Origin: Caldilineaceae bacterium
Lineage (GTDB): Bacteria; Chloroflexota; Anaerolineae; Caldilineales; Caldilineaceae
Assembly (NCBI GenBank): GCA_019637685.1
Contig: JAHBVF010000015.1
Span: 7,875 to 71,874, forward strand
Direction of reading: 5' to 3'
DNA length: 64,000 nucleotides
The notes under the pieces are model-generated. The model did not search any database. It saw only the letters and a program-made list of their open reading frames with translations, and was not told where the DNA came from. Of this stretch, positions 3,538 through 41,891 are shown in pieces. The number at the start of each line of letters is the position of its first letter. Positions within the stretch are counted from its first letter, which is position 1. The position numbers and the translations under genes are program-made.

Positions 3538-4338
3538 TCAGATTGTCTCTACATCTGTTTTGAACTCGTTCCAGACCTGTTGGTTGGCCGCGGCCAGGGT
3601 GGGCCGGGAGATGGCCGCATAGTCCTGGGCCTGGGCGGGCAAGGGAAAGAGGGCCGAGCCGTCCAGCCCGGTCACGTGCGCGCCGGCCTCCTGGGCCACC
3701 AGCACCGCGCCGGCCAGGTCCCACACTTTGGGCGTGCTCTCCACCGCCACCAGCGAGACGCCCCGGGCCAGGGCCAGCAGGTGATAGGCCGCGCTGCCCA
3801 ACATCCGCGCCTTCAGCGGCGAGCGGATGCGCAGTCTGCGCCGGGTGCGGGTGCATTGGGTAAACAGGTGCTGGTTGTCAATGGTGGCGGTCTGGTCGGT
3901 CAGCAGGGGTTCGTCGTTGCAGAATGCGCCCCCGCCGAGCCAGGCCGCATAGACTTCGCCCAGCAGGGGAAAGTCCACCACCGCGGCCACGGGCGCGCCG
4001 GCCCGCAGCAGGGCGATGCTTACCCCCCAGATGGGCAGCCCCCGGGCAAAGTTGGTGGTCCCGTCCAGGGGATCGATCACCCACGTGTATTCGGCCGCGG
4101 GATCGTAGCGGGTGCTGCCCTCTTCGCTGAGGACGGCGTGCCGGGGCCAGGTGGCCTGGATGGCCTGCACGATCAGGTCGTTGGCCTTTTCGTCGGCCTC
4201 TGTCACCAGCGTGCCATCGCTTTTGCGTCGGGCATGGGAGCGGCGGAAGTAGCCGGCCGCGGCCCGGCCCGCGCGGCCGGCCAGGTCCCGGGCGAAGTCC
4301 ACGTAGGCTATCAGGTCGCTGGATATTAACTCACTCAT
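3538..4338 (-). CDS. inositol monophosphatase family protein (SuhB/IMPase-like)
   Basis: Metal-binding block WVIDPLDGTTNFARGLP and LSEEGS. Start moved to MSELISS (AAGGA RBS 8 nt upstream) instead of the upstream in-frame Met of the track ORF. Confidence 0.8.
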   Translation of the reverse strand: MSELISSDLIAYVDFARDLAGRAGRAAAGYFRRSHARRKSDGTLVTEADEKANDLIVQAIQATWPRHAVLSEEGSTRYDPAAEYTWVIDPLDGTTNFARGLPIWGVSIALLRAGAPVAAVVDFPLLGEVYAAWLGGGAFCNDEPLLTDQTATIDNQHLFTQCTRTRRRLRIRSPLKARMLGSAAYHLLALARGVSLVAVESTPKVWDLAGAVLVAQEAGAHVTGLDGSALFPLPAQAQDYAAISRPTLAAANQQVWNEFKTDVETI

Positions 4339-5264
4339 TGTCCATTCCTTAGCAGGGGGAGAAGGGCCTGCACCCATTGATACAAGCGTGCGCGCACGGC
4401 CTGGATGCGGGCCTGGTTGGGGGGCTGAATGGGGGTGCGGGTGTGCTGATCCCCCACAAAGAGGCCCCGGTTGATCTCCACCATCAGCCCCCAATAGCTG
4501 CCACCGATGGCCTGCTGATAGGCCGGGTCGCAATAGTGGCGCAGGATGTAGCCGCCCGCAAATGGCTGGTTCAGGGCCACCACCGGCGCGGGCCGTCGGC
4601 TGTCCGGCTCCAGCAGGTCCAAGTCCGCGAAAATTTCCCCGGCAATCTCCCCGGCCTGGCGCACAAAGGCCCCGGGCGCGGTCAGCCGACGACCGGCGGT
4701 CAGTGGATCAGCGGCAGCCACGGCTTCTCCATCTGGCCCACCGAAGTTGCCAATGCAGATCAGCGGGCGCGCCTGGCCGGGATCGCCGTAGGCGCTGGGG
4801 CCGTGCTGGGCCATATTGTGGCAGTCCAGAAAGAGACGCACATCCCCCGCGTGTTGGCGCAGTGCCCCGTCCAGGGCCTGGTGAAAGGGACGCCAGGCCG
4901 TGTCCAGCAGGTCCTGCTGCTCGGCCCGGCCCAGGTGCGCAGTGTAGATAGGGTCGCCGTAGCTGGTCTGGCTTTTGACCGCGCCGTCGGGGTTGTCCAG
5001 GGAGTCGGGGGCGCGGTTGGCGTCGATGAGCACCCGGGCGGTGGGCATTGTCACCGCGGCCAGTGTCCCCTGTCTCCCGCCCAGCGTGGGATGGCTGAAG
5101 TCGAAAATCTGGTCGTTCCAGAGGTCGCACTCGTTATAGATGGTCACCTCGTCGATGGCGAGGCGCGCGGCCACGGATGGGGGCACAGACAGTCCCCCGT
5201 GGGGGATACTCTGGATAATGGGCAGGGCAGATGGCATGGGGTTTGTCTTCTGGATAATCGCCAT
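4335..5264 (-). CDS. N-formylglutamate amidohydrolase family protein
   Basis: PHGG.. block (IPHGGLSVPP) near N-terminus and overall FGase-like size. Start placed at MAIIQ, whose ATG overlaps the TrkH stop by 1 nt (TGATG). Confidence 0.55.
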   Translation of the reverse strand: MAIIQKTNPMPSALPIIQSIPHGGLSVPPSVAARLAIDEVTIYNECDLWNDQIFDFSHPTLGGRQGTLAAVTMPTARVLIDANRAPDSLDNPDGAVKSQTSYGDPIYTAHLGRAEQQDLLDTAWRPFHQALDGALRQHAGDVRLFLDCHNMAQHGPSAYGDPGQARPLICIGNFGGPDGEAVAAADPLTAGRRLTAPGAFVRQAGEIAGEIFADLDLLEPDSRRPAPVVALNQPFAGGYILRHYCDPAYQQAIGGSYWGLMVEINRGLFVGDQHTRTPIQPPNQARIQAVRARLYQWVQALLPLLRNGQ

Positions 5265-6757
5265 CAGCCCAGGATTACCGGCTCTTCGGGGTGATGGATC
5301 AGCGAGGGCTGTTCGCTCTGGGCCAGGGCCACCACAATTGTCAGTGGGCCAAGCCGCCCCCAGAACATTGTAAACGCAATCAGAAAGCGTCCCCAATTAT
5401 CCAGACTGGTAGTAAAGTTGAGGGAATAGCCCGCGTTGGCAAAGGCGCTGATCACCTCGAAGCCTTCGGTGAAAATCGTGCCCTGGCCCAGCAGAGAGAG
5501 GCTGAGGGTGACAATAGCGACCAGCAGAGTGCTGACGGTCATAATGGCCACGGCCTTGAAAATTGTCTCCGTGGGGACTGCGCGGTCAAAGGCCACGGCC
5601 GCGGTCCGGCCCTTGGCCGTGGCGATCACAGAGACGAGCAGCACACCGACCACACTGGTGGTGACACCGCCCGCCATACTGGCCGGCGCGCCCCCGATGA
5701 ACATCCAGATCATAATGATGGCCTGGGTTGCCTCGCTTAGCTGATCCAGGGGCAGGATTGTCAGGCCAGCCGTGCGCGCGCTGACAATTGTGAAGAGACT
5801 GACCCACAGTTTCTCCAGAAAGGGCAGGTGGCTGAGCACATCCGAATAGATGGCGCTGTCCAGCATCATCAGGATTGTGCCGGTCACAGTCAGCACCAGC
5901 GTCAGCACCAGCGTAATCCGGGTGTTGAGGGCCAGCATACGGTCCCGGCGAAAGGAGGCCAGATCATAGAGGACTGTGACGCCAAAGCCGCCCAGCAGGA
6001 TGAGTGTGCCCATGGTAGCCAGGGTGGCGAAATCTGATCCAAAGCCGAAGAGAATGCCCCGGTCTGTGCCGGAAAAGAGATCGAAGCCCGCGTTGCAATA
6101 GCTGCTGATGGCGTGGAAAATCGCCAGCCAGAGCGCTTCGCCGTCCGGGATGGTTGTGCGCCAGCGCAGCCAGAGCAGCAGCGCGCCCACGCCCTCCACT
6201 GAGAGGGTGACGCCCAGAACATAGAGGGCCAACCGTCCCACCCCAGAGGCTTTCTCCGCGCCCAGGGATTGCTGGATAATCATACGCTCGTTGAGCGTCA
6301 CCCGGCGGCCCACCAGACGCAGGAGCAGCACGCTAAAGGCAATAAAGCCCACGCCGCCCACCTGCAGGAGGACGAGGATAATCACCTGGCCGAAGCGGGT
6401 GAAATCTGTGGCCGTCGTCAGCACGGCCAGCCCGGTCACCGTAATGGCACTGGTCGCGGTAAAAAATGCATCCATCCAGCCGATAGAGTGGTTCGTGGCC
6501 GAGGCCGCGGGCAATTTCAGCAGAAGCGTGCCCACAAGAACCAACAGGCCAAACCCAATGATCAGCACCTGGGGTGTCTGTAGACGCTGGCCAGAACGCC
6601 TGTTCGGGGGCTGGGCCGGTGTCCAGTCTGCCACGTCCGAAGGCGGTATGGGGGGCGGAGGGGCCTCCAGGCGAATGCGGGTCAGATAGTCTGGCTGCCC
6701 AGGCTGGGACGCAGAGGCTGGGTCGGAAGATGGGTTGGTGGTTCCGGTACGTGACAT
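5264..6757 (-). CDS. trkH: TrkH/KtrB family potassium uptake transporter
   Basis: 497 aa polytopic membrane protein with repeated pore-loop-like segments (GFxxxG... SAxTxTGL). Typical TrkH length and architecture. Confidence 0.8.
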   Translation of the reverse strand: MSRTGTTNPSSDPASASQPGQPDYLTRIRLEAPPPPIPPSDVADWTPAQPPNRRSGQRLQTPQVLIIGFGLLVLVGTLLLKLPAASATNHSIGWMDAFFTATSAITVTGLAVLTTATDFTRFGQVIILVLLQVGGVGFIAFSVLLLRLVGRRVTLNERMIIQQSLGAEKASGVGRLALYVLGVTLSVEGVGALLLWLRWRTTIPDGEALWLAIFHAISSYCNAGFDLFSGTDRGILFGFGSDFATLATMGTLILLGGFGVTVLYDLASFRRDRMLALNTRITLVLTLVLTVTGTILMMLDSAIYSDVLSHLPFLEKLWVSLFTIVSARTAGLTILPLDQLSEATQAIIMIWMFIGGAPASMAGGVTTSVVGVLLVSVIATAKGRTAAVAFDRAVPTETIFKAVAIMTVSTLLVAIVTLSLSLLGQGTIFTEGFEVISAFANAGYSLNFTTSLDNWGRFLIAFTMFWGRLGPLTIVVALAQSEQPSLIHHPEEPVILG

Positions 6758-33594: not shown

Positions 33595-33960
33595 TATACG
33601 GTTGAAACCGCACAATCACCCGGAAACCGGAGGCTGACGGCGTGCCCACCAATCGTGCGGCTGCAAGCCGCACCTACGCATTCCCCCTACCGCACCCCAA
33701 AGACCTTCATCACCTCATCCCCCAAATGATTGATCACCTTCACCGCGATGCGCCTAAAGGCAGGCATCTGTAGGTGCGGTTTCCAACCGCACAATCACCC
33801 GGAAACCGGAGGCTGACGGCGTGCCCACCAATCGTGCGGCTTGCAGCCGCACCTACGCATTCCCCCTACCGCACCCCAAAGACCTTCATCACCTCATCCC
33901 CCAGATGATTGATCACCTTCACCGCAATGCGCCCGGAAGTGGGCTTGTCGAAGGGCCGGG
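33595..33960. repeat. tandem ~180-bp duplication comprising a REP doublet plus the last ~25 codons of mod
   Basis: Unit TTCCAACCGCACAATCACCCGGAAACCGGAGGCTGACGGCGTGCCCACCAATCGTGCGGCTGCAAGCCGCACCTACGCATTCCCCCTACCGCACCCCAAAGACCTTCATCACCTCATCCCCCA(A/G)ATGATTGATCACCTTCACCGC present twice (33602-33770 and 33782-33950). The second copy is the real mod 3' end. Confidence 0.75.
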
Positions 33961-36586
33961 AAATCTCGCTGTGCAGACTCTCCCAGGCTTCCTCGTCGAT
34001 CTCCGCCTTCAGCGTCGTCTTGAGCGAGCTGTAGGGGTCATTCGCCCCCAGAAAATAGGCGTGGCGCACAAAGAAGCTCTCCTCGTTGTAGTCCGTGTCG
34101 ATGAACCAGACCGCGATGTCATCCGGACCGCCCGACTGCACCTGGCCCGACTGGGGATGAAAGACATCCACCCCGTGAATCTGCACCCGGATTTGCCCGT
34201 CGCCCGTCGCCTGAATCTCGATGTCCGGCTCGCCGAAGATGACGAAGAGATTGCCCGCACCCGTGTTCTTGAGCGCATCGGCCATGTGCAGGTCCGCGTT
34301 CATGCGCGCTTTCAGCACAGGAATGCGCCCCAGCTTCTCGAACTCGGCGGAGTGGGCGTCGTAGTTGAAGGCGCAGGCGATCAGCACATCGAAGCCCGCA
34401 TCCCCCGCCTCCCTCGCCGCGGCCACCAGATCGGCCCTGGGCACAGTGCCAAACTCCGGGCCGATGAAGATGCCCGCCCGCCGCTCTTTGCCGTTCTCCC
34501 CCTCCTGATAGCGCCCCTCGGCGCACAGGTAATGGCCCGGCCAGCCGGTGAGGGTGGTGAAGCTGATGCGGTCCTCCTTGTGCGCCTGCTGTACCCCAGC
34601 CGTGCGCAGATTCTCCAAAATCACCTGGGTAAAGTCGATTTCGCTGGCGTACTTCTCCTTCTCCTCGTCGATAAAGTTGCCTGCGATCGGCTGCAACTCG
34701 TCGTTCTCGTCCACGGCCAGCACCCGGTGGGGCGAGAGCGACTCCACAGTGAAAGGCCCCGCCACCCGCACGGTATTGCGCTCCTCATAGGGTTTGTCGT
34801 AGAGGAACTCCTGATCCGAGTTGGCCGCAATCGAGGCGTCCATCTCCTGCTGGCGGGCGATGCGCTCGGTCCACCACGCCCCGTGCAGCTCTTTGGCCTG
34901 GGCCGACCACCCCTTCTCCGCCTCGCGGGGAATCTCCCACTCCTCCCAGGACTGGCCCAGAGCGGCGTTGAGCTGGCCGCGCAGGGGTTCCATCACCGCC
35001 TGAAACTGCTCCCAGATCACATCGATCTCGGCGTTGTTGGCGATGTCTTTGAGCATAATGTGGGGAACCCGCTCGTAGACAAAGCCGTGGCGGATGTTGC
35101 CGAAGGTGGGCGCAGTGGAGGGGGCGCTGCGGCTGACCTCCGCCTCTTTCAATTGCCCCGCCGGGGAATCGGCCAGCAGATAGTAGGGGTAGCGCGCCCC
35201 CATAATGCGGGCACGGGCCAGGGCCAGGGCCACCCGGCTGGTGTCGATGGTGATCCAGCGCCGCCCCCACTGCTCGGCGATATAGGCTGTGGTGCCAGAG
35301 CCACAAGTTGCGTCCAGCACAAGATCGCCCGGATCAGTGGTCATGAGAATGCAGCGTTGAATAACCCGCGTTGAGGTCTGTACTACGTAAATTTTGTCTT
35401 TGGCAAATGCACCAAACTGAGTATCCAGCCACCTATTATTCAAATTGGATACCGATCTTTCCGAGTAAAATTTCTTCACGCGAATTTGGGTTTCACTGAC
35501 CCTGACAATTCGATCTGCCTTTGCTATTCGATACATACCAACTGTATGTTCGTTACTCCAATGGCGAGCGGCTGATGGACGAAATTCCTGTCCTTGAAAT
35601 ACAAATACTTGCTCTTGGCTCGCTGCTCCCTGAGAGGTCAAATCTCCTAACTCGAAGCCGTCTTCATCCTGATTTTCTTTCGGCAAGAAGAGTGATCGAT
35701 ACTTCGTCTTGTCAGTTGCTTTTGCATACCATAAAACATAGTCGTTAACATTAGGAACGAAGTTCGATGTCCGGCCAGTGGAAGTGGCAAAACTAATGAG
35801 GGAAATGCAATTCTCCTCCCCAAAGACCTCATCCATCAGCGCCCGCACCCGATGCACATTCTCATCCCCGATCTGCACAAAGATCGACCCGCTCTCGGTC
35901 AGCAAATCTCGCGCCACGGTCAGCCGGTCGCGCAGATAGGTCAGATAGGAGTGAATGCCGTCCCGCCAGGTGTCCCGGAAAGCCTTCACCTGCTCCGGTT
36001 CCCGGGTGATGTGGTCGGCCTTGCCGTCCCGCACATCCCGGCTGGTGGTGGACCACTGGAAGTTGGAATTGAATTTGATGCCGTAGGGCGGGTCAATGTA
36101 GATGCACTGCACTTTGCCTCGCAGCCCCTCCCGCTCGGCCAGGCTGGCCATCACCTGCAAGCTGTCCCCCAGAATCATCCGGTTGGTCCAGTTGGCGTCG
36201 TGTTGATAAAAGTCCGTGGCCGTCGCCCCCTTCGGGATGCCGTTGAAGTCGGCGAAGAGGTCCAACTGCGCGGCCAACTCTTCCTGCCCGGCCGCGGCCC
36301 GTTCTGCACTCTGGCGCAGCAGGTCGTCGATCAGCACCTTCGGGTGTACCTTCTCCTGGATGTACAAGGGCGGCGCGGCCACCACCAGGTCGGACCAATC
36401 CTGCTCATCCTTGCCCCGCCAGACCAATTGGGGGTCCAAATCCCGGTTGCGCCGTGCATAGGCGATGCGGATGGGGCTTTTCTCCTCCTCCGCCATCACC
36501 GACTCGTATTCCGCGGTGGGGATGTTCGTGCGCCGGGCCTCGTCGTGTTTCAGGGTTTCTACGGTTTTGGGGGTGCGTGTCGCCAT
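33866..36586 (-). CDS. mod: Type III-like restriction-modification methyltransferase (Mod), N6-adenine/N4-cytosine DPPY class, long form
   Basis: 906 aa. DPPY catalytic motif (VQCIYIDPPYGIKFNSNFQ), C-terminal SAM-binding block LVLDATCGSGTTAYIAEQWGRRWITID, conserved N-terminal RRTNIPTAEY / PLYIQEKVHP blocks seen in Mod-type methylases, and a ~300-aa C-terminal extension. Confidence 0.85.
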   Translation of the reverse strand: MATRTPKTVETLKHDEARRTNIPTAEYESVMAEEEKSPIRIAYARRNRDLDPQLVWRGKDEQDWSDLVVAAPPLYIQEKVHPKVLIDDLLRQSAERAAAGQEELAAQLDLFADFNGIPKGATATDFYQHDANWTNRMILGDSLQVMASLAEREGLRGKVQCIYIDPPYGIKFNSNFQWSTTSRDVRDGKADHITREPEQVKAFRDTWRDGIHSYLTYLRDRLTVARDLLTESGSIFVQIGDENVHRVRALMDEVFGEENCISLISFATSTGRTSNFVPNVNDYVLWYAKATDKTKYRSLFLPKENQDEDGFELGDLTSQGAASQEQVFVFQGQEFRPSAARHWSNEHTVGMYRIAKADRIVRVSETQIRVKKFYSERSVSNLNNRWLDTQFGAFAKDKIYVVQTSTRVIQRCILMTTDPGDLVLDATCGSGTTAYIAEQWGRRWITIDTSRVALALARARIMGARYPYYLLADSPAGQLKEAEVSRSAPSTAPTFGNIRHGFVYERVPHIMLKDIANNAEIDVIWEQFQAVMEPLRGQLNAALGQSWEEWEIPREAEKGWSAQAKELHGAWWTERIARQQEMDASIAANSDQEFLYDKPYEERNTVRVAGPFTVESLSPHRVLAVDENDELQPIAGNFIDEEKEKYASEIDFTQVILENLRTAGVQQAHKEDRISFTTLTGWPGHYLCAEGRYQEGENGKERRAGIFIGPEFGTVPRADLVAAAREAGDAGFDVLIACAFNYDAHSAEFEKLGRIPVLKARMNADLHMADALKNTGAGNLFVIFGEPDIEIQATGDGQIRVQIHGVDVFHPQSGQVQSGGPDDIAVWFIDTDYNEESFFVRHAYFLGANDPYSSLKTTLKAEIDEEAWESLHSEISRPFDKPTSGRIAVKVINHLGDEVMKVFGVR

Positions 36587-36597
36587 TTGGATTGCCT

Positions 36598-37236
36598 TTG
36601 GTAGGTGCGGTTTTCAACCGCACATTTTCGATTGCCCCGTCAATATACGGGAATCGATTATCGTAGGTGCGGTTTGCAACCGCACGTTTTCGGAATGTCC
36701 CACATTGTGCGGGTTACGGATGGTGTGTGTGCGATTTGTAACCACAGATTCTTCGTCGTTCCCGCATTGTGCGGCTGCAAGCCGCACCTACGAATTGGAC
36801 GGTTGCCTTTTGTAGGTGCGGTTTGCAAAACCGCACATTTTCGGAATGTCCCACATCGTGCGGGTTACGAATGTTGTGTGTGCGATTTGTAACCGCACAT
36901 TCTTCGTCGTCCCCGCATCGTGCGGCTGCAAGCCGCACCTACGGGTTGGACGGTTGCCTTTGGTAGGTGCGGTTTGCAACCGCACATTTTCGGAATGTCC
37001 CACATCGGGCGGGTTACGGATGGTGTGTGTGCGATTTGTAACCGCACATTCTTCGCCATCCCCACATTGTGCGGCTGCAAGCCGCACCTACGGATTGGAC
37101 GGTTGCCTTTGGTAGGTGCGGTTTGCAACCGCACATTTTCGGAATGCCCCACATCGTGCGGGTTACGGATGATGTGTGTGCGATTTGTAACCGCACATTC
37201 TTCGTCATCCCCACATTGTGCGGCTGCAAGCCGCGC
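36598..37236. repeat. REP array L: ~4 tandem copies of a ~153-bp composite unit containing GTAG-type REP palindromes
   Basis: Unit GGTTGCCTTTGGTAGGTGCGGTTTGCAACCGCACATTTTCGGAATGTCCCACATCGTGCGGGTTACGGATGGTGTGTGTGCGATTTGTAACCGCACATTCTTCGTCGTCCCCGCATTGTGCGGCTGCAAGCCGCACCTACGGGTTGGAC repeated with few substitutions. Each unit has three hairpins. Ends at the RAYT stop. Confidence 0.85.
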
Positions 37237-37770
37237 CTACGGGTTGTCATCTTCGCTTTCTTGCCAATCGTATTCTGTGATGGATTCCGGCAATGCCCAT
37301 CCCCAGCCGTCGGGGTAGGCATTACGTTCCCGCCAGTGGTGGTAGCTGGAATGGGGCCAATCTTCCGGTCTGGCAACCAACCCGTGGTGCACCGGATTGT
37401 AATGGATGTAGTCCAGGTGGCGCTGAAAGTCGATTTCGTCCCGGATGATGTGGTCCCAGAATCCCTTTTGCCAGAAGTGCATTGGCCCAGAAGTTCCGAT
37501 TCGTTTTTTATACTCTTTGGTGAAATTCGGCTTGAGCGAATGCATAATATCGCTAAAATTGCTATCACCGGTGGGACGGATTAGCAGATGAAAGTGTTCG
37601 TGCAGAAAGACGTATCCCTGGGTGACAAAGGGGTGAAGCTCCTTCACATTGCCCAATATCTCACGCAAGAGGTCAAGATGCGTCTCTTCCCGAAAGACCG
37701 GGACACGGCGATCGACCACCTGCGTGATGAAGATGATTGCGTTGGGTACGTAATAACGTCGGATGTTCAT
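37237..37770 (-). CDS. REP-associated tyrosine transposase (RAYT; IS200/IS605-like Y1 HUH transposase)
   Basis: 177 aa. HUH motif HEHFHLLI and catalytic Tyr region FQRHLDYIHYNPVHHGLV. Flanked on both sides by REP arrays. Confidence 0.85.
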   Translation of the reverse strand: MNIRRYYVPNAIIFITQVVDRRVPVFREETHLDLLREILGNVKELHPFVTQGYVFLHEHFHLLIRPTGDSNFSDIMHSLKPNFTKEYKKRIGTSGPMHFWQKGFWDHIIRDEIDFQRHLDYIHYNPVHHGLVARPEDWPHSSYHHWRERNAYPDGWGWALPESITEYDWQESEDDNP

Positions 37771-37774
37771 ATTT

Positions 37775-38188
37775 TCCCGTGGGTGCGGTTTTCAACCGCA
37801 TAATTGTTGGCGTATCCATCATTTCCCAGGATTCGATACCTGTGCGGCTGCAAACCGCATCTACAATTTGAGATGTTGTGGGTACGGTTTTCAACCGCAC
37901 AATCGTCGGCGTTTCCTTCATTTGCCAGGACTCGGTACCGTTTTGTAGGTGCGGTTTTCAACCGCACAATCGTCGGCGTTTCCTTCATTTGCCGGGATTC
38001 GATACCTGTGCGGCTGCAAGCCGCACCTACAATTTGAGATGTTGTGGGTGCGGTTTTCAACCGCACAATCGTCGGCGTTTCCTTCATTTTCCGGGATTCG
38101 ATGCCTGTGCGGCTTGCAGCCGCACAATTGTCGGCCTTCCCGCCACCTACCGGAATTCGATACCTGTGCGGCTGCAAGCCGCACCTAC
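37775..38188. repeat. REP array R: ~3.5 tandem copies of a ~117-bp unit with REP doublets; last REP overlaps the res stop codon
   Basis: Unit TGTGGGTGCGGTTTTCAACCGCACAATCGTCGGCGTTTCCTTCATTTGCCGGGATTCGATACCTGTGCGGCTGCAAGCCGCACCTACAATTTGAGATGT. The final GCACCTAC provides the TAG stop of res. Confidence 0.85.
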
Positions 38189-41100
38189 AAAATGGCCGCT
38201 TCAATCAACTTGTTGAAATCCGCCTCAATCTCAAAGACGGCTTTGAACTCGGCAAACTGCCAGCGGCCCAGTGTGCCCAAATTGTTCACCCCCGGTACCC
38301 AATAGCTCTTCATCGTGTTGGACTTGTCCTTCACATCCTCGCCCCGAAAGCCCTTGATTTCCACCACCAGATTGAGCAGGTCAGCCCGCCCGTCGTCGAT
38401 CTGCACGATAAAGTCCGGGATATATGTGCGTTTGGTCGAGCCGTAGAGGTAGGGCACTTCCAGCCCCAAGCCCTGGTTCTTCACATAGGCCCGCACACGG
38501 GGATGGGCCTCGGCCACCCGGCAGAACTCGGATTCCCAGTCGCTGTCACAGACCACCCAGTTGATGTGGCAGTGCTGGGGAGATGTCTTCCAGCGGGTCT
38601 CTTTGGAGGTGTTGAAGTTGACGTGGATGGTGGAGCCGGTGGGGTTATAGGCGTCCAGAATCGCTTTGATGGGCCGGTCGTCGGCCATGGATTCGGTGAT
38701 GGCGGCGGCGATACGCTCACAGGCCATATCCCCTATCTCTCGGTAGATCAGTTGGGCCGGATACGTGCCACCGGTACAGCGCAGATAGCCCCCTTCCAAC
38801 CACTGCTGGGCAATGCGCTTCAACTGGCCGAAGAGATGCAGCTTGGGTTCTTCGCCCGGATCACGGAATTTGCTGTAGAGCAGATGCTTGGCCAGATGGT
38901 AGAGCAGCGTGGACTGGCGCATCCCTTCCAGATGCTTCACATTCAGGTCGATCCCTTCGCCGATAATGCCCTCGTTGCGGGTCACCGAAGGGCCGACCAG
39001 CAGCGGCGTCAACTCCAGCACAGAATCTGGGCCAAAGGTGGCCGTGAGCTTCTCTGCCGGCAGCTCCACCCGATAGCCCTCCACCCGGGGAAATTGAATC
39101 TCCAAAGCGTCCCGCTCTGGTCGCACAGCCATCACCTGCACGGTCTGTTTGGGTGGTTTGGGGGCCACCACCACTGGCTTGGCCGTGAAGTCAAAGGGGA
39201 TGCCGAAGACATCCGCATACTCCACATTGAACAGCCCCTCCTCGTTCAATTCGTAGGATTGGCGGCGCAGGGCGCGGCCCACCACCTGCTCGCACAGCAG
39301 TTGTGTACCAAAGGCCCGCACCCCCAGCACGTGGGTCACGGTGTTGCAGTCCCAGCCCTCGGTCAGCATGGAAACCGAGACCACACAGCGCACAGATTCG
39401 CCCAGCCGCCCTTCCTTGCCTACGGTATTCATCACCTCCCGCAGCAACTCCTGGTCGCTAATGTTCTGGCCGTCGGCCTGGTTGCCGCTGCGCTCCACAA
39501 TCTCCCGGCGAAAGCGTTCGATTTCGTCCGCCGCCATCTCCCGAAAATCGTTGTCCAGAGCGTCGCCGGACTCAAGCTGTTCGCTGTCGATGAGCAGGGT
39601 ATTGGGCCGGGCCAGCCGGTTGCCCCCTTCGTCGTAGTTGCGGAAGAGGGGCAGCCGTCCTGCATTGTAGGCTTCCGTCTCCCCATCTTCCCCCAGCCGT
39701 TGAAAGCCGGAGATATAGTCGTAGACCAGCTTGGAGGTGGAGGTGTTGTTGCAGACCACAATAAAGACCGGCGGCGTCCCAATCCCAGCCCCCTGCCAGA
39801 GATCGAATATCTTCTCGTAGTGGCCGTAGAGGGCATCCAGCGCGGTCTGAAGCTCGGCGGGCAAAGCCAGCGGGTCCAGATTCTTGCTGGCCTTGCCCCG
39901 CCCCTTCTTGGGCATCTTCTTGCCGATATGCTCCCATAGGTTGCGGAATTTGGGCATATCCCCGCCGGGGATATTGTCGGCCACAGGCACACGGGGCAGC
40001 TTGACAATCCCACACTCGATGGCGTCCATCAGGGAGAAGTCGCTGGCTGCCCAGGGAAAGAGGGTGCCTTCGGCATAGCCGGAGCCGCGCAGGAAGAAAG
40101 GCGTGGCCGAGAGGTCATAGACCTTCTGCACCCCCAGCTTGCGCTTGACCACTTCCAGCCCGGAAATCCACAACCGGGCGGCCTCGTTGGCCTTCTGGGC
40201 CTCCTTGCGGTCGTCCCCCTTCAAATCCTCAAAATCTTCGTTGTCCGGTTTCTCCCGGTAGCAGTGGTGGGCTTCGTCGTTGAGCACCAGCACATTCTTC
40301 ATGCCCATCAGTTCCGGCATCACCCGCTGGATCATTTGGCCTTCGCTCTCCAATGTCTGCAACTCCGGCCCTCGCCCTTGCAGAAATTCCCGGCTGGTCT
40401 TGGAGAGGCTCAGACGTTCGCGCAGTTTGAAGGAATGGTAGTTGGTGATGACGATTTTGGCCCGGTCCAGATCGCCCAGCATATCGCCGGGCACCAGCTC
40501 CCGGCTGCGGTAGTAGCTGTCCGGGTCGTTGGGGTGCAGCACCCGCAGGCGGTCCCGAATGGTGATACCCGGCGTCACAATCAGAAAGCCCCGGGTAAAG
40601 GCGCGGCTGCGGGGATGGCGCACCGCGTTGATGGTCTGCCAGGCAATCAGCATGGCCATCACTGTCGTCTTGCCTGCACCCGTAGCCAGCTTCAGCGCAA
40701 TCCGCAACAACTCCGGGTTGGCCTGTTCGCTGGCCCCCTGGAGCAGGTCCAGAGTTTCCTTGCCCTGGGCCGAATTGGGTGCGACCTCCGCCAGCCAGAT
40801 GGCCGTCTCCACCGCCTCCACCTGGCAGAAGAAGGGGCGAATGCCCTGAAAGGGATAGCTGCGCCAGTGTTGCAGCAGTCGCTGGGTCTCCGGCGTCACC
40901 CCCCACTTGCCGGGGTCGGGAATCTGCCGCCAGCGGTCCACCTGGGCGCGGATGGCGTTGATGTTGCCGGTGGTGTCGTATTGCTGCTCGTCCGTGGAGA
41001 TGCCCTCTTCTTCCCCCAGCACCAGGGCCAACTGTTGATCCTTCGACTTGCGCCGCTTCTTGGGCTTGGGCACAGGGGTCACAAACTTGGCCGTGCGCCG

Positions 41101-41238
41101 AAAGTCGAGAATCTGATTGGTGGGTTGGCCGTCTGCGTCCAGTTCCCAATGGCGGGCTGGGTAGGTGTAAGGGGAGTTAAGGATGGGTTTCTCGAAGAAT
41201 TGTTCTGTCATCGTGTTCCTATATTTACGCGGTTGCAC
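38185..41238 (-). CDS. res: Type III restriction enzyme Res subunit (SF2 helicase + endonuclease)
   Basis: 1017 aa. N-terminal FFEKPILNSPYTYP...TPETQRLLQHWRS block; Walker A LATGAGKT; DEAH box LVLNDEAHHCY; helicase motif VI region QVVGRALRR; C-terminal endonuclease-like domain. Confidence 0.85.
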   Translation of the reverse strand: MQPRKYRNTMTEQFFEKPILNSPYTYPARHWELDADGQPTNQILDFRRTAKFVTPVPKPKKRRKSKDQQLALVLGEEEGISTDEQQYDTTGNINAIRAQVDRWRQIPDPGKWGVTPETQRLLQHWRSYPFQGIRPFFCQVEAVETAIWLAEVAPNSAQGKETLDLLQGASEQANPELLRIALKLATGAGKTTVMAMLIAWQTINAVRHPRSRAFTRGFLIVTPGITIRDRLRVLHPNDPDSYYRSRELVPGDMLGDLDRAKIVITNYHSFKLRERLSLSKTSREFLQGRGPELQTLESEGQMIQRVMPELMGMKNVLVLNDEAHHCYREKPDNEDFEDLKGDDRKEAQKANEAARLWISGLEVVKRKLGVQKVYDLSATPFFLRGSGYAEGTLFPWAASDFSLMDAIECGIVKLPRVPVADNIPGGDMPKFRNLWEHIGKKMPKKGRGKASKNLDPLALPAELQTALDALYGHYEKIFDLWQGAGIGTPPVFIVVCNNTSTSKLVYDYISGFQRLGEDGETEAYNAGRLPLFRNYDEGGNRLARPNTLLIDSEQLESGDALDNDFREMAADEIERFRREIVERSGNQADGQNISDQELLREVMNTVGKEGRLGESVRCVVSVSMLTEGWDCNTVTHVLGVRAFGTQLLCEQVVGRALRRQSYELNEEGLFNVEYADVFGIPFDFTAKPVVVAPKPPKQTVQVMAVRPERDALEIQFPRVEGYRVELPAEKLTATFGPDSVLELTPLLVGPSVTRNEGIIGEGIDLNVKHLEGMRQSTLLYHLAKHLLYSKFRDPGEEPKLHLFGQLKRIAQQWLEGGYLRCTGGTYPAQLIYREIGDMACERIAAAITESMADDRPIKAILDAYNPTGSTIHVNFNTSKETRWKTSPQHCHINWVVCDSDWESEFCRVAEAHPRVRAYVKNQGLGLEVPYLYGSTKRTYIPDFIVQIDDGRADLLNLVVEIKGFRGEDVKDKSNTMKSYWVPGVNNLGTLGRWQFAEFKAVFEIEADFNKLIEAAIL

Positions 41239-41464: not shown

Positions 41465-41762
41465 TGCACAAGCACCAGTCATCGCTGCACAACTACTCGT
41501 CATCATTGCACAAGCACCGGTCATCGCTGCACAAACACTCATCACCCCTGCACAGCCATCCACCATCACCGCGCAACTACTCGTCATCACTGCACAGCCA
41601 CCCATCATCGCCGCGCAAGCACTCATCATTGCCGCGCAAGCAGCAGTCACCAGCGCACAAACACTCGTCATCACTGCACAGCCACCCATCATCGCCGCGC
41701 AAGCACTCATCATTGCCGCGCAAGCAGCAGTCACCAGCGCACAAACACTCGTCATCACCACA
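41465..41762. repeat. 14-copy tandem repeat with 21-nt period (GCACAAnCACTCGTCATCnnn); all frames open
   Basis: Minus-strand frame gives heptads xxMxxCA (VMTSVCA LVTAACA AMMSACA AMMGGCA ...). Plus-strand frames give His/Cys-rich (CTSTSHR CTTTRHH ...) or xxIxAQx heptads. Units are not identical (substitutions between copies). Confidence 0.8.
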
Positions 41763-41821
41763 CAGACCCCGATTCCTAACCAGCCCTTTTCTTGGAGATT
41801 AAAGAATTGATCGGGCAATAG

Positions 41822-41891
41822 CGTAGGTGTGGCTTGTAGCCACACGTCTCTGGGCATCCCTTATCTGTGCGGCTTCAAGCCGCGCCTACCC
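41822..41891. repeat. REP doublet (GTAGGTGTGGCTTGTAGCCACAC ... GTGCGGCTTCAAGCCGCGCCTAC)
   Basis: Same GTAG-type palindromes as the RAYT-flanking arrays, ~580 nt upstream of res. Confidence 0.7.

Follow-up and report, generated by a model that had tools for sequence, protein, structure and literature searches.

What kind of element lies at positions 36598-38188 of this Caldilineaceae (Chloroflexota) contig, where short GTAG-tagged palindromes are reiterated on both sides of a small transposase-like gene, and does it hold anything that known systems do not already offer? Our study addressed this question in the window, by which we mean the whole 64 kb stretch of DNA analysed, which belongs to a contig of a metagenome-assembled genome (MAG). 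The locus and its flanks were found to be, with high probability, a GTAG-type system of repetitive extragenic palindromes (REPs) together with their REP-associated tyrosine transposase (RAYT), a so-called 'REPtron'. The REP/RAYT module itself is ordinary, and every feature of it named in an earlier note on this DNA is already in the literature; its sole unusual trait is its position between the two genes of a restriction-modification (RM) operon. Read along the minus strand, the order is res (the restriction gene), a REP array, the RAYT gene, a second REP array and mod (the methyltransferase gene). What is new here is the location of a RAYT between mod and a res of the BPTD_3080 family, a nesting that is kept in at least six related lineages.

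The RAYT gene and its product

The protein encoded at the centre of the locus belongs, as judged from its sequence, to the TnpAREP/RAYT family of domesticated HUH/Y1 nucleases with a single domain. It scored 139.8 bits on the NCBIfam equivalog model REP_Tyr_transpos (cut-off 80) and 34 bits on the Pfam model Y1_Tnp ('Transposase IS200 like'), but just 20.3 bits on the NCBIfam model transpos_IS200 (cut-off 55). A phmmer search against the PDB matched it to Escherichia coli TnpAREP (4ER8) with E=4.7e-24. The intact HUH motif and catalytic tyrosine proposed in the earlier note were borne out by this alignment and by the family models, as H59-F60-H61, Y121, N125 and H129 align with H59-M60-H61, Y115, N119 and H123 of 4ER8, the residues named as the active site of TnpAREP by Messing et al. 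(PMC3479197); the alignment does not reach the C-terminal ligand E161. Two motifs that are absent from IS200 transposases, an N-terminal threonine and NP(L/V)(R/K)xG by the tyrosine (Nunvar 2010, PMC2817692), have counterparts in T16, which sits in FITQ, and in NPVHHG (125-130), with H at the R/K position where close homologues read NPVRHG.

Comparison with two homologues gave a dN/dS (ratio of non-synonymous to synonymous substitution rates) of 0.065-0.07, and the RAYT gene is therefore under strong purifying selection. The earlier note took the module to be probably active; what the sequence supports is an intact gene kept by selection, whose current activity is conjectural. A single RAYT copy is present in the 64 kb window. 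A total of 532 RAYT homologues were found and, among the 120 listed, all of the named ones were from Chloroflexota. As a separate observation, the GC content of the RAYT gene was 7-13 points under that of the neighbouring sequence (0.46-0.535 vs 0.53-0.64) in the window and in the related loci L126, L175, L121, L058 and L127.

REP hairpins and doublets

Each REP comprises 23 nt, namely a GTAG tag plus an 8-3-8 hairpin that reads either GTGCGGTT-NNN-AACCGCAC or GTGCGGCT-NNN-AGCCGCAC. Both share the hairpin core GTAGGTGCGG-N7-CCGCAC, where N7 covers the loop and inner stem. The presence of GTAG-tagged REPs at 36598-38188, as reported in the earlier note, was clearly supported: 16 exact cores of the form GTGCGG-N4-10-CCGCAC were counted in the window against 0.11 expected from shuffles, and GTAGGTGCGG at one mismatch or fewer occurred 27 times against 3.8 expected. 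A fuzzy scan of the window recovered approximately 22 GTAG- or GTGG-tagged REPs and a further 4-5 degenerate ones, at four sites that all fall within 8.3 kb. The REPs in the window are all intergenic and overlap with genes only at stop codons.

The earlier note had also described inverted doublets resembling bacterial interspersed mosaic elements (BIMEs), and this description was confirmed. The REPs are paired head-to-head with GTAG at the outer ends, and those on the plus strand, almost all of TT type (GTGCGGTT...AACCGCAC), alternate with minus-strand REPs of CT type (GTGCGGCT...AGCCGCAC) across conserved linkers, in tandem units of 149-151 and 99 bp, which is the organization of a BIME. Single REPs fold at approximately -9 kcal/mol, with a z-score of about -5 relative to shuffles, and of four doublets tested, three form a single long hairpin over their whole length (z -5.9 to -6.6). 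Compensatory pair changes, such as T-A to C-G and G-C to A-T, were seen at stem positions 2, 4, 6, 7 and 8 across 33 distinct REP variants from 14 loci, which indicates that the REP hairpin is under selection.

Arrays around the RAYT gene and further REP sites

The RAYT gene is bordered directly by inverted GTAG REPs, one 5' (37779-37801) and one 3' (37218-37240), each of which belongs to an array (Table 1). According to the earlier note, units of 153 and 117 bp were amplified three to four times on either side of the gene. The left array does carry tandem units in that number, but at a period of 149-151 bp rather than 153 bp: a partial unit (36601-36662) is joined to four units that run from 36663 to 37240/37246, and Tandem Repeats Finder (TRF) gave a period of 149 with 3.9 copies and 93% matches. 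These units are 92-96% identical to one another, and each consists of a head-to-head doublet of approximately 129 nt, similar to a REPIN (REP doublet forming a hairpin), and a linker of approximately 20 nt. In this doublet, imperfect inverted arms of 50 nt accompany an internal degenerate REP, and the whole folds as one long hairpin at -37.6 kcal/mol (z = -6.1). No 117 bp unit was found in the right array, which is instead a mosaic of pieces of 99, 67, 99, 59 and 93 bp, reported by TRF as a period of 166 with 2.5 copies (86%) or of 99 with 1.8 copies (94%). Its full 99 bp pieces hold an 86-nt head-to-head doublet and a 13-nt linker, and the doublet at 37945-38030 folds at -26 kcal/mol (z = -6.6).

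The arrays also reach into the ends of the genes. The TAG stop codon of res comes from the terminal REP of the right array (38166-38188), that of RAYT (37237-37239) is the TAG within the GTAG tag of the adjoining REP, and in L121 and L126 the stop codons of res and RAYT are likewise supplied by GTAG. This is a known habit of GTAG termini, which provide TAG stop codons to flanking open reading frames (ORFs) (PMC3733652).

The extent given in the earlier note holds for the part of the system described there, but the system reaches further in both directions, with a third cluster just downstream of mod and an isolated doublet upstream of res. The unit of the third cluster (~179 bp) joins an 87-nt head-to-head doublet to a copy of the final ~80 nt of the coding part of mod, so that a duplicate of the mod 3' end (33678-33760; source 33857-33940) now accompanies a REP doublet as a non-coding gene-end fragment. 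The doublet at 33770-33856 folds as separate hairpins (z = -3.7). The isolated doublet folds at -18.5 kcal/mol (z = -5.9), and one of its arms shows a compensatory stem change (GTGTGG...CCACAC).

Table 1. Coordinates of the REP/RAYT module and of the genes that enclose it
Feature	Position in window	Strand	Evidence
RAYT gene (177 aa)	37237-37770	minus	Family models, 4ER8 alignment
Left REP array, between RAYT (upstream) and mod (downstream)	36601-37240		TRF, unit sequences
Right REP array, flanked by the stop codon of res and the start of RAYT	37779-38188		TRF, unit sequences
Third REP cluster, just downstream of mod	33601-33856		TRF period 179, 1.8 copies, 97% matches
Diverged head-to-head REP doublet standing alone ~590 bp upstream of res	41823-41889		Fuzzy scan, folding
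res, BPTD_3080-family (type III-like) restriction endonuclease/helicase, 1017 aa	38185-41238	minus	NCBIfam restr_BPTD_3080, 1366.7 bits (cut-off 800)
mod, N6/N4 DNA methyltransferase, 906 aa, partner of res	33866-36586	minus	Pfam N6_N4_Mtase, 112.8 bits

REPs and arrays in related genomes

Scanning species-representative genomes for the exact REP core returned at least 120 loci. Among the matches listed, approximately 30 loci, from about 21 assemblies, were from Chloroflexota, and just two of these carried a RAYT, leaving 28 without; in one Caldilineaceae MAG the exact core was present on at least six contigs. The occurrence of the core at many loci without a RAYT indicates that this REP is dispersed in related genomes. 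An observation of a different kind is that the identical core GTAGGTGCGG-N7-CCGCAC was abundant in Poribacteria and present in Terriglobia/Acidobacteriota MAGs among the matches listed (L003-L120), and no close RAYT homologue was seen in the Poribacteria and Terriglobia loci of that list.

Array size varied between loci with a related RAYT. The spacer between res and RAYT holds a single doublet in L121 and L126, two 99 bp units in L211 and at least 3.5 units in L212, and L123 has at least three units of 99 bp downstream of its RAYT. L058, a 4-Mb Caldilineaceae contig from long reads with a RAYT 69% identical to that of the window, has units of 111-112 bp in 4, 2.9 and 3.9 copies around the gene. 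L175 shows a similar, older duplication of the mod 3' end.

Nesting within the restriction-modification operon

All three genes of the nested operon are co-oriented, with res upstream and mod downstream of RAYT. The res product is 65-71% identical to plasmid-borne proteobacterial homologues and 75-78% identical across phyla, which argues that the RM system is horizontally mobile. In canonical operons of this family, res and mod are abutted (1-bp or 31-bp gap, with no hairpins) and are followed by a gene for a UvrD-like helicase, labelled '3'-5' exonuclease' in plasmid records; examples are a P. avellanae plasmid (1-bp gap) and the Herpetosiphonaceae locus L218. The arrangement res-RAYT-mod, or the visible part of it, was also found in L121-L125 (RAYT 88% identical), L211 (82%), L049 from a Litorilinea aerophila MAG (78%), and L129 and L126 (75%). 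A nested RAYT is present in L175 as well (4321-4842), with an apparent identity of 52%; its N-terminal half, including the HUH region, looks frameshifted, the REPs that flank it are intact, and it is either a decaying copy or the product of a sequencing error. An independent insertion of the L175 RAYT, considered on account of its 52% identity, was dropped in view of the apparent frameshift and its place inside the same clade. By neighbour-joining, the nested RAYTs form one subclade together with three non-nested RAYTs.

Outside the module, the loci share no homologous DNA, whereas the module is 75-91% identical at the nucleotide level (window, L121/L123, L126, L175 and L211); tblastx of the module flanks against L121, L123, L126, L175 and L129 returned noise only. 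Between the window and L211, res is 91% identical in nucleotides with a dS (synonymous divergence) of 0.27 (37943-41220), compared to 79% and a dS of 1.8 for RAYT (37114-37862), and the identity falls inside the right REP array. The histories of res and RAYT are discordant, and the position of the drop suggests exchange of the cassette by recombination at the REPs; the RAYT allele is apparently swappable independently of res, with a breakpoint inside the REP array.

Other cargo was found at the junctions of this operon family. Between res and mod, L211 carries an HNH nuclease (138 aa) and a 102-aa ORF on the opposite strand (5448-6176), L213 an AbiEi/AbiEii pair (3637-5107), and L214 (9172-9531), L220 and L221 have a four-helix-bundle (23S_rRNA_IVP) protein as junction cargo. 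In addition, these last three Ardenticatenaceae/Chloroflexi loci have a second RAYT, of an unrelated lineage, between mod and the UvrD-like helicase gene (L214:12613-13143, L220:13607-14137, L221:12175-12705). Its identity to the RAYT of the window is 25%, its REP_Tyr_transpos score is 102 bits, and a palindrome of its own, ATTCCACGCAGAGCGTGGAA, lies on its flanks. The slots thus differ, res-mod in Caldilineaceae and mod-helicase in the Ardenticatenaceae type, each lineage with its own REP. That a single operon family hosts two independent RAYT lineages is suggestive, but the loci amount to a handful and their junctions accept inserts of many kinds.

Discussion

Our study places this locus among well-described REP/RAYT systems. 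The earlier note had considered the tandem amplification of whole units, rather than of single REPs, to be unusual, but there are several precedents. In Pseudomonas fluorescens SBW25, all three RAYT genes are adjoined by tandem REPIN clusters that include flanking sequence (Bertels & Rainey 2011, PMC3116915). RAYT genes are always flanked by inverted REPs, one third of them are directly associated with BIMEs, and E. coli yafM has BIME-2 on both sides (Nunvar 2010, PMC2817692). GTAG REPs occur in Chloroflexi, and head-to-head dimers and clusters reiterated in tandem with flanking DNA have been described for the superfamily (Di Nocera 2013, PMC3733652).

One close point of comparison is yafM (TnpAREP) of E. 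coli K-12, whose product, like that of the RAYT gene of the window, is a Y1 HUH nuclease of one domain; the two share their catalytic residues and are approximately 40% identical by eye over ~150 aa. The E. coli REPtron shares the 5' GTAG, arrays on both sides, two alternating REP types and fixed linkers. It differs from the present system in that the window derives from Chloroflexota (Caldilineaceae) and its RAYT lies inside an RM operon, that the units are larger (99-151 bp) than those of the yafM BIMEs, and that the stem is perfect and shorter (8-3-8), without the bulge needed for binding by E. coli TnpAREP. The REPIN clusters of P. fluorescens SBW25 share head-to-head doublets that fold as one hairpin, but their REP sequence and RAYT lineage differ. 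The GTAG REP superfamily, which includes the Stenotrophomonas SMAG-type elements, shares the terminal GTAG, the short stem-loop, the head-to-head dimers, the tandem reiteration with flanking DNA and the supply of TAG stop codons, and it has been reported in Chloroflexi; however, neither Caldilinea nor an association with RM operons is mentioned in the text of that survey (Di Nocera 2013). TnpA of the insertion sequence (IS) family IS200/IS605 has the same Y1 HUH fold and chemistry and likewise recognizes a hairpin and a guide tetranucleotide, but the gene in the window is not multi-copy, has no IS ends or tnpB and fails the IS200 family model. As a REP/RAYT system, the locus adds little beyond a clean example from a phylum in which REP/RAYT biology is hardly described.

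By analogy with E. coli TnpAREP, the RAYT would bind single-stranded DNA in which a REP has folded into its 8-3-8 hairpin. It would recognize the 5' GTAG tag through its individual bases, and would cleave and rejoin the DNA beside that tag. Head-to-head doublets (REPINs of ~67-129 nt) could thereby be mobilized as non-autonomous elements. The tandem amplification of whole units would be a secondary process, in which units are multiplied when neighbouring REPs recombine unequally or when replication slips between them, rather than by transposition. We favour this route because the repeat unit takes in linker DNA in both of the arrays that flank RAYT, because the unit at the third site takes in ~80 nt of the coding end of mod, and because copy number differs between close relatives. 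The locus thus offers direct sequence evidence for array growth by duplication of whole units with flanking DNA. The arrays showed no sigma-70-like promoter, and transcription of RAYT therefore probably comes from res by read-through.

It could be argued that the REP hairpins are primarily RNA or DNA regulators of the RM operon, acting as attenuators, as mRNA stabilizers that set the res:mod ratio or as terminators, in which case the arrays would be selected for that role and RAYT would be incidental or a maintenance factor. REPs act in mRNA stability and termination in E. coli. These roles, mentioned in PMC3733652, favour such an explanation, as do the placement of the REP sites at the gene junctions of the co-oriented res-RAYT-mod, where REPs abut or overlap stop codons, and the presence of REPs at the same junctions in L121, L126, L129, L175 and L211. 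However, the abutted res and mod of the canonical operons indicate that the operon needs no hairpins, an E. coli-type consensus scan of the arrays showed nothing like an intrinsic terminator on the coding (minus) strand, no Rfam family reached the gathering score anywhere in the window, and the same REP is found at many unrelated loci in related genomes. We therefore regard a primarily regulatory role as unlikely, although it would be compatible with a REP/RAYT system. Less probable again is that the REP-bounded res-RAYT-mod block is a composite mobile element, whether the RAYT, or recombination at the REPs, moves the RM genes or the mobile RM operon carries RAYT/REP between genomes. The non-homologous flanks of a conserved module, the similarity of res across phyla and to plasmid copies, the REPs at the mod-distal end and 590 bp upstream of res, and the disagreement between res and RAYT histories with a breakpoint inside a REP array would all fit. 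Yet no REP was seen upstream of res in L126 or L175, and a Mrr-like gene lies directly upstream of res in L121, so that there is no consistent outer REP pair; furthermore, the GC content of the module tracks the flanks of each host, which suggests long residence, and variable flanks are expected anyway in defence islands. To our knowledge, Y1 enzymes do not move 8-kb segments in RAYT systems.

Two further explanations concern the nature of the gene and of the arrays. An autonomous IS200/IS605 element, with the ORF as its transposase and the palindromes as its ends, is almost certainly the wrong explanation: the Pfam Y1_Tnp match and the shared HUH/Y1 chemistry are what would be expected of it, but the protein falls far below the cut-off of the IS200 model and well above that of the RAYT model, the window holds no second copy and no tnpB, and the GTAG hairpins on the flanks are multi-copy and are found as well at many loci that lack the gene. 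It is also very improbable that the arrays are artefacts of short-read assembly or CRISPR-like arrays. The contig is from a MAG and related short-read contigs repeatedly end inside arrays, but the units differ from one another at 4-8% of positions in a consistent register, which argues for real array copies, and the long-read 4-Mb contig shows the same architecture. A CRISPR array was ruled out, as the repeats alternate in orientation and the segments between them are themselves repeated at ~90-96% identity.

The REP/RAYT reading, which we prefer to all of these, has its own points against it. The fuzzy scan found no REPs in the other ~55 kb of the window, and as those present all lie in or next to the RM/RAYT module, the window gives no sign of genome-wide dispersal in the source genome. 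The doublet at 41823-41889 is the only copy away from gene junctions, and it is diverged. Because the contig is MAG-derived, the exact array copy numbers could be mis-assembled. Lastly, the arrays yielded no minus-strand promoter, and the promoter and terminator scan gave nothing above shuffle expectation, in each case with an E. coli-type consensus that says little about Chloroflexota.

The position of the RAYT may be of wider relevance, as RAYTs are regarded as vertically inherited, single-copy and immobile, and their route into new lineages is an open question. In Chloroflexota, RAYT/REP cassettes could conceivably be recurrent, exchangeable passengers, or functional partners, of BPTD_3080-family RM operons, an idea to which we give only a small chance. 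If the association were non-random, a mobile RM operon could carry otherwise immobile, vertically inherited RAYT/REP systems into new lineages; alternatively, the addictive nature of the RM system could stabilize the RAYT. A RAYT inside a widely transferred RM operon, taken together with the signs of cassette exchange at the REP arrays and the second RAYT lineage, is a testable lead, not a result.

Other repeats in the window

Two further tandem repeats were noted. Just upstream of res, at 41466-41764, a 21-bp repeat is present in approximately 14 copies (67% matches) with a higher-order periodicity of 42/84 bp; translated in one of its frames, it would give a peptide of heptad-like AQxxVIA repeats. 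A G-rich 43-bp repeat with no relation to the REPs occupies 519-660 in 3.3 copies (79% matches).

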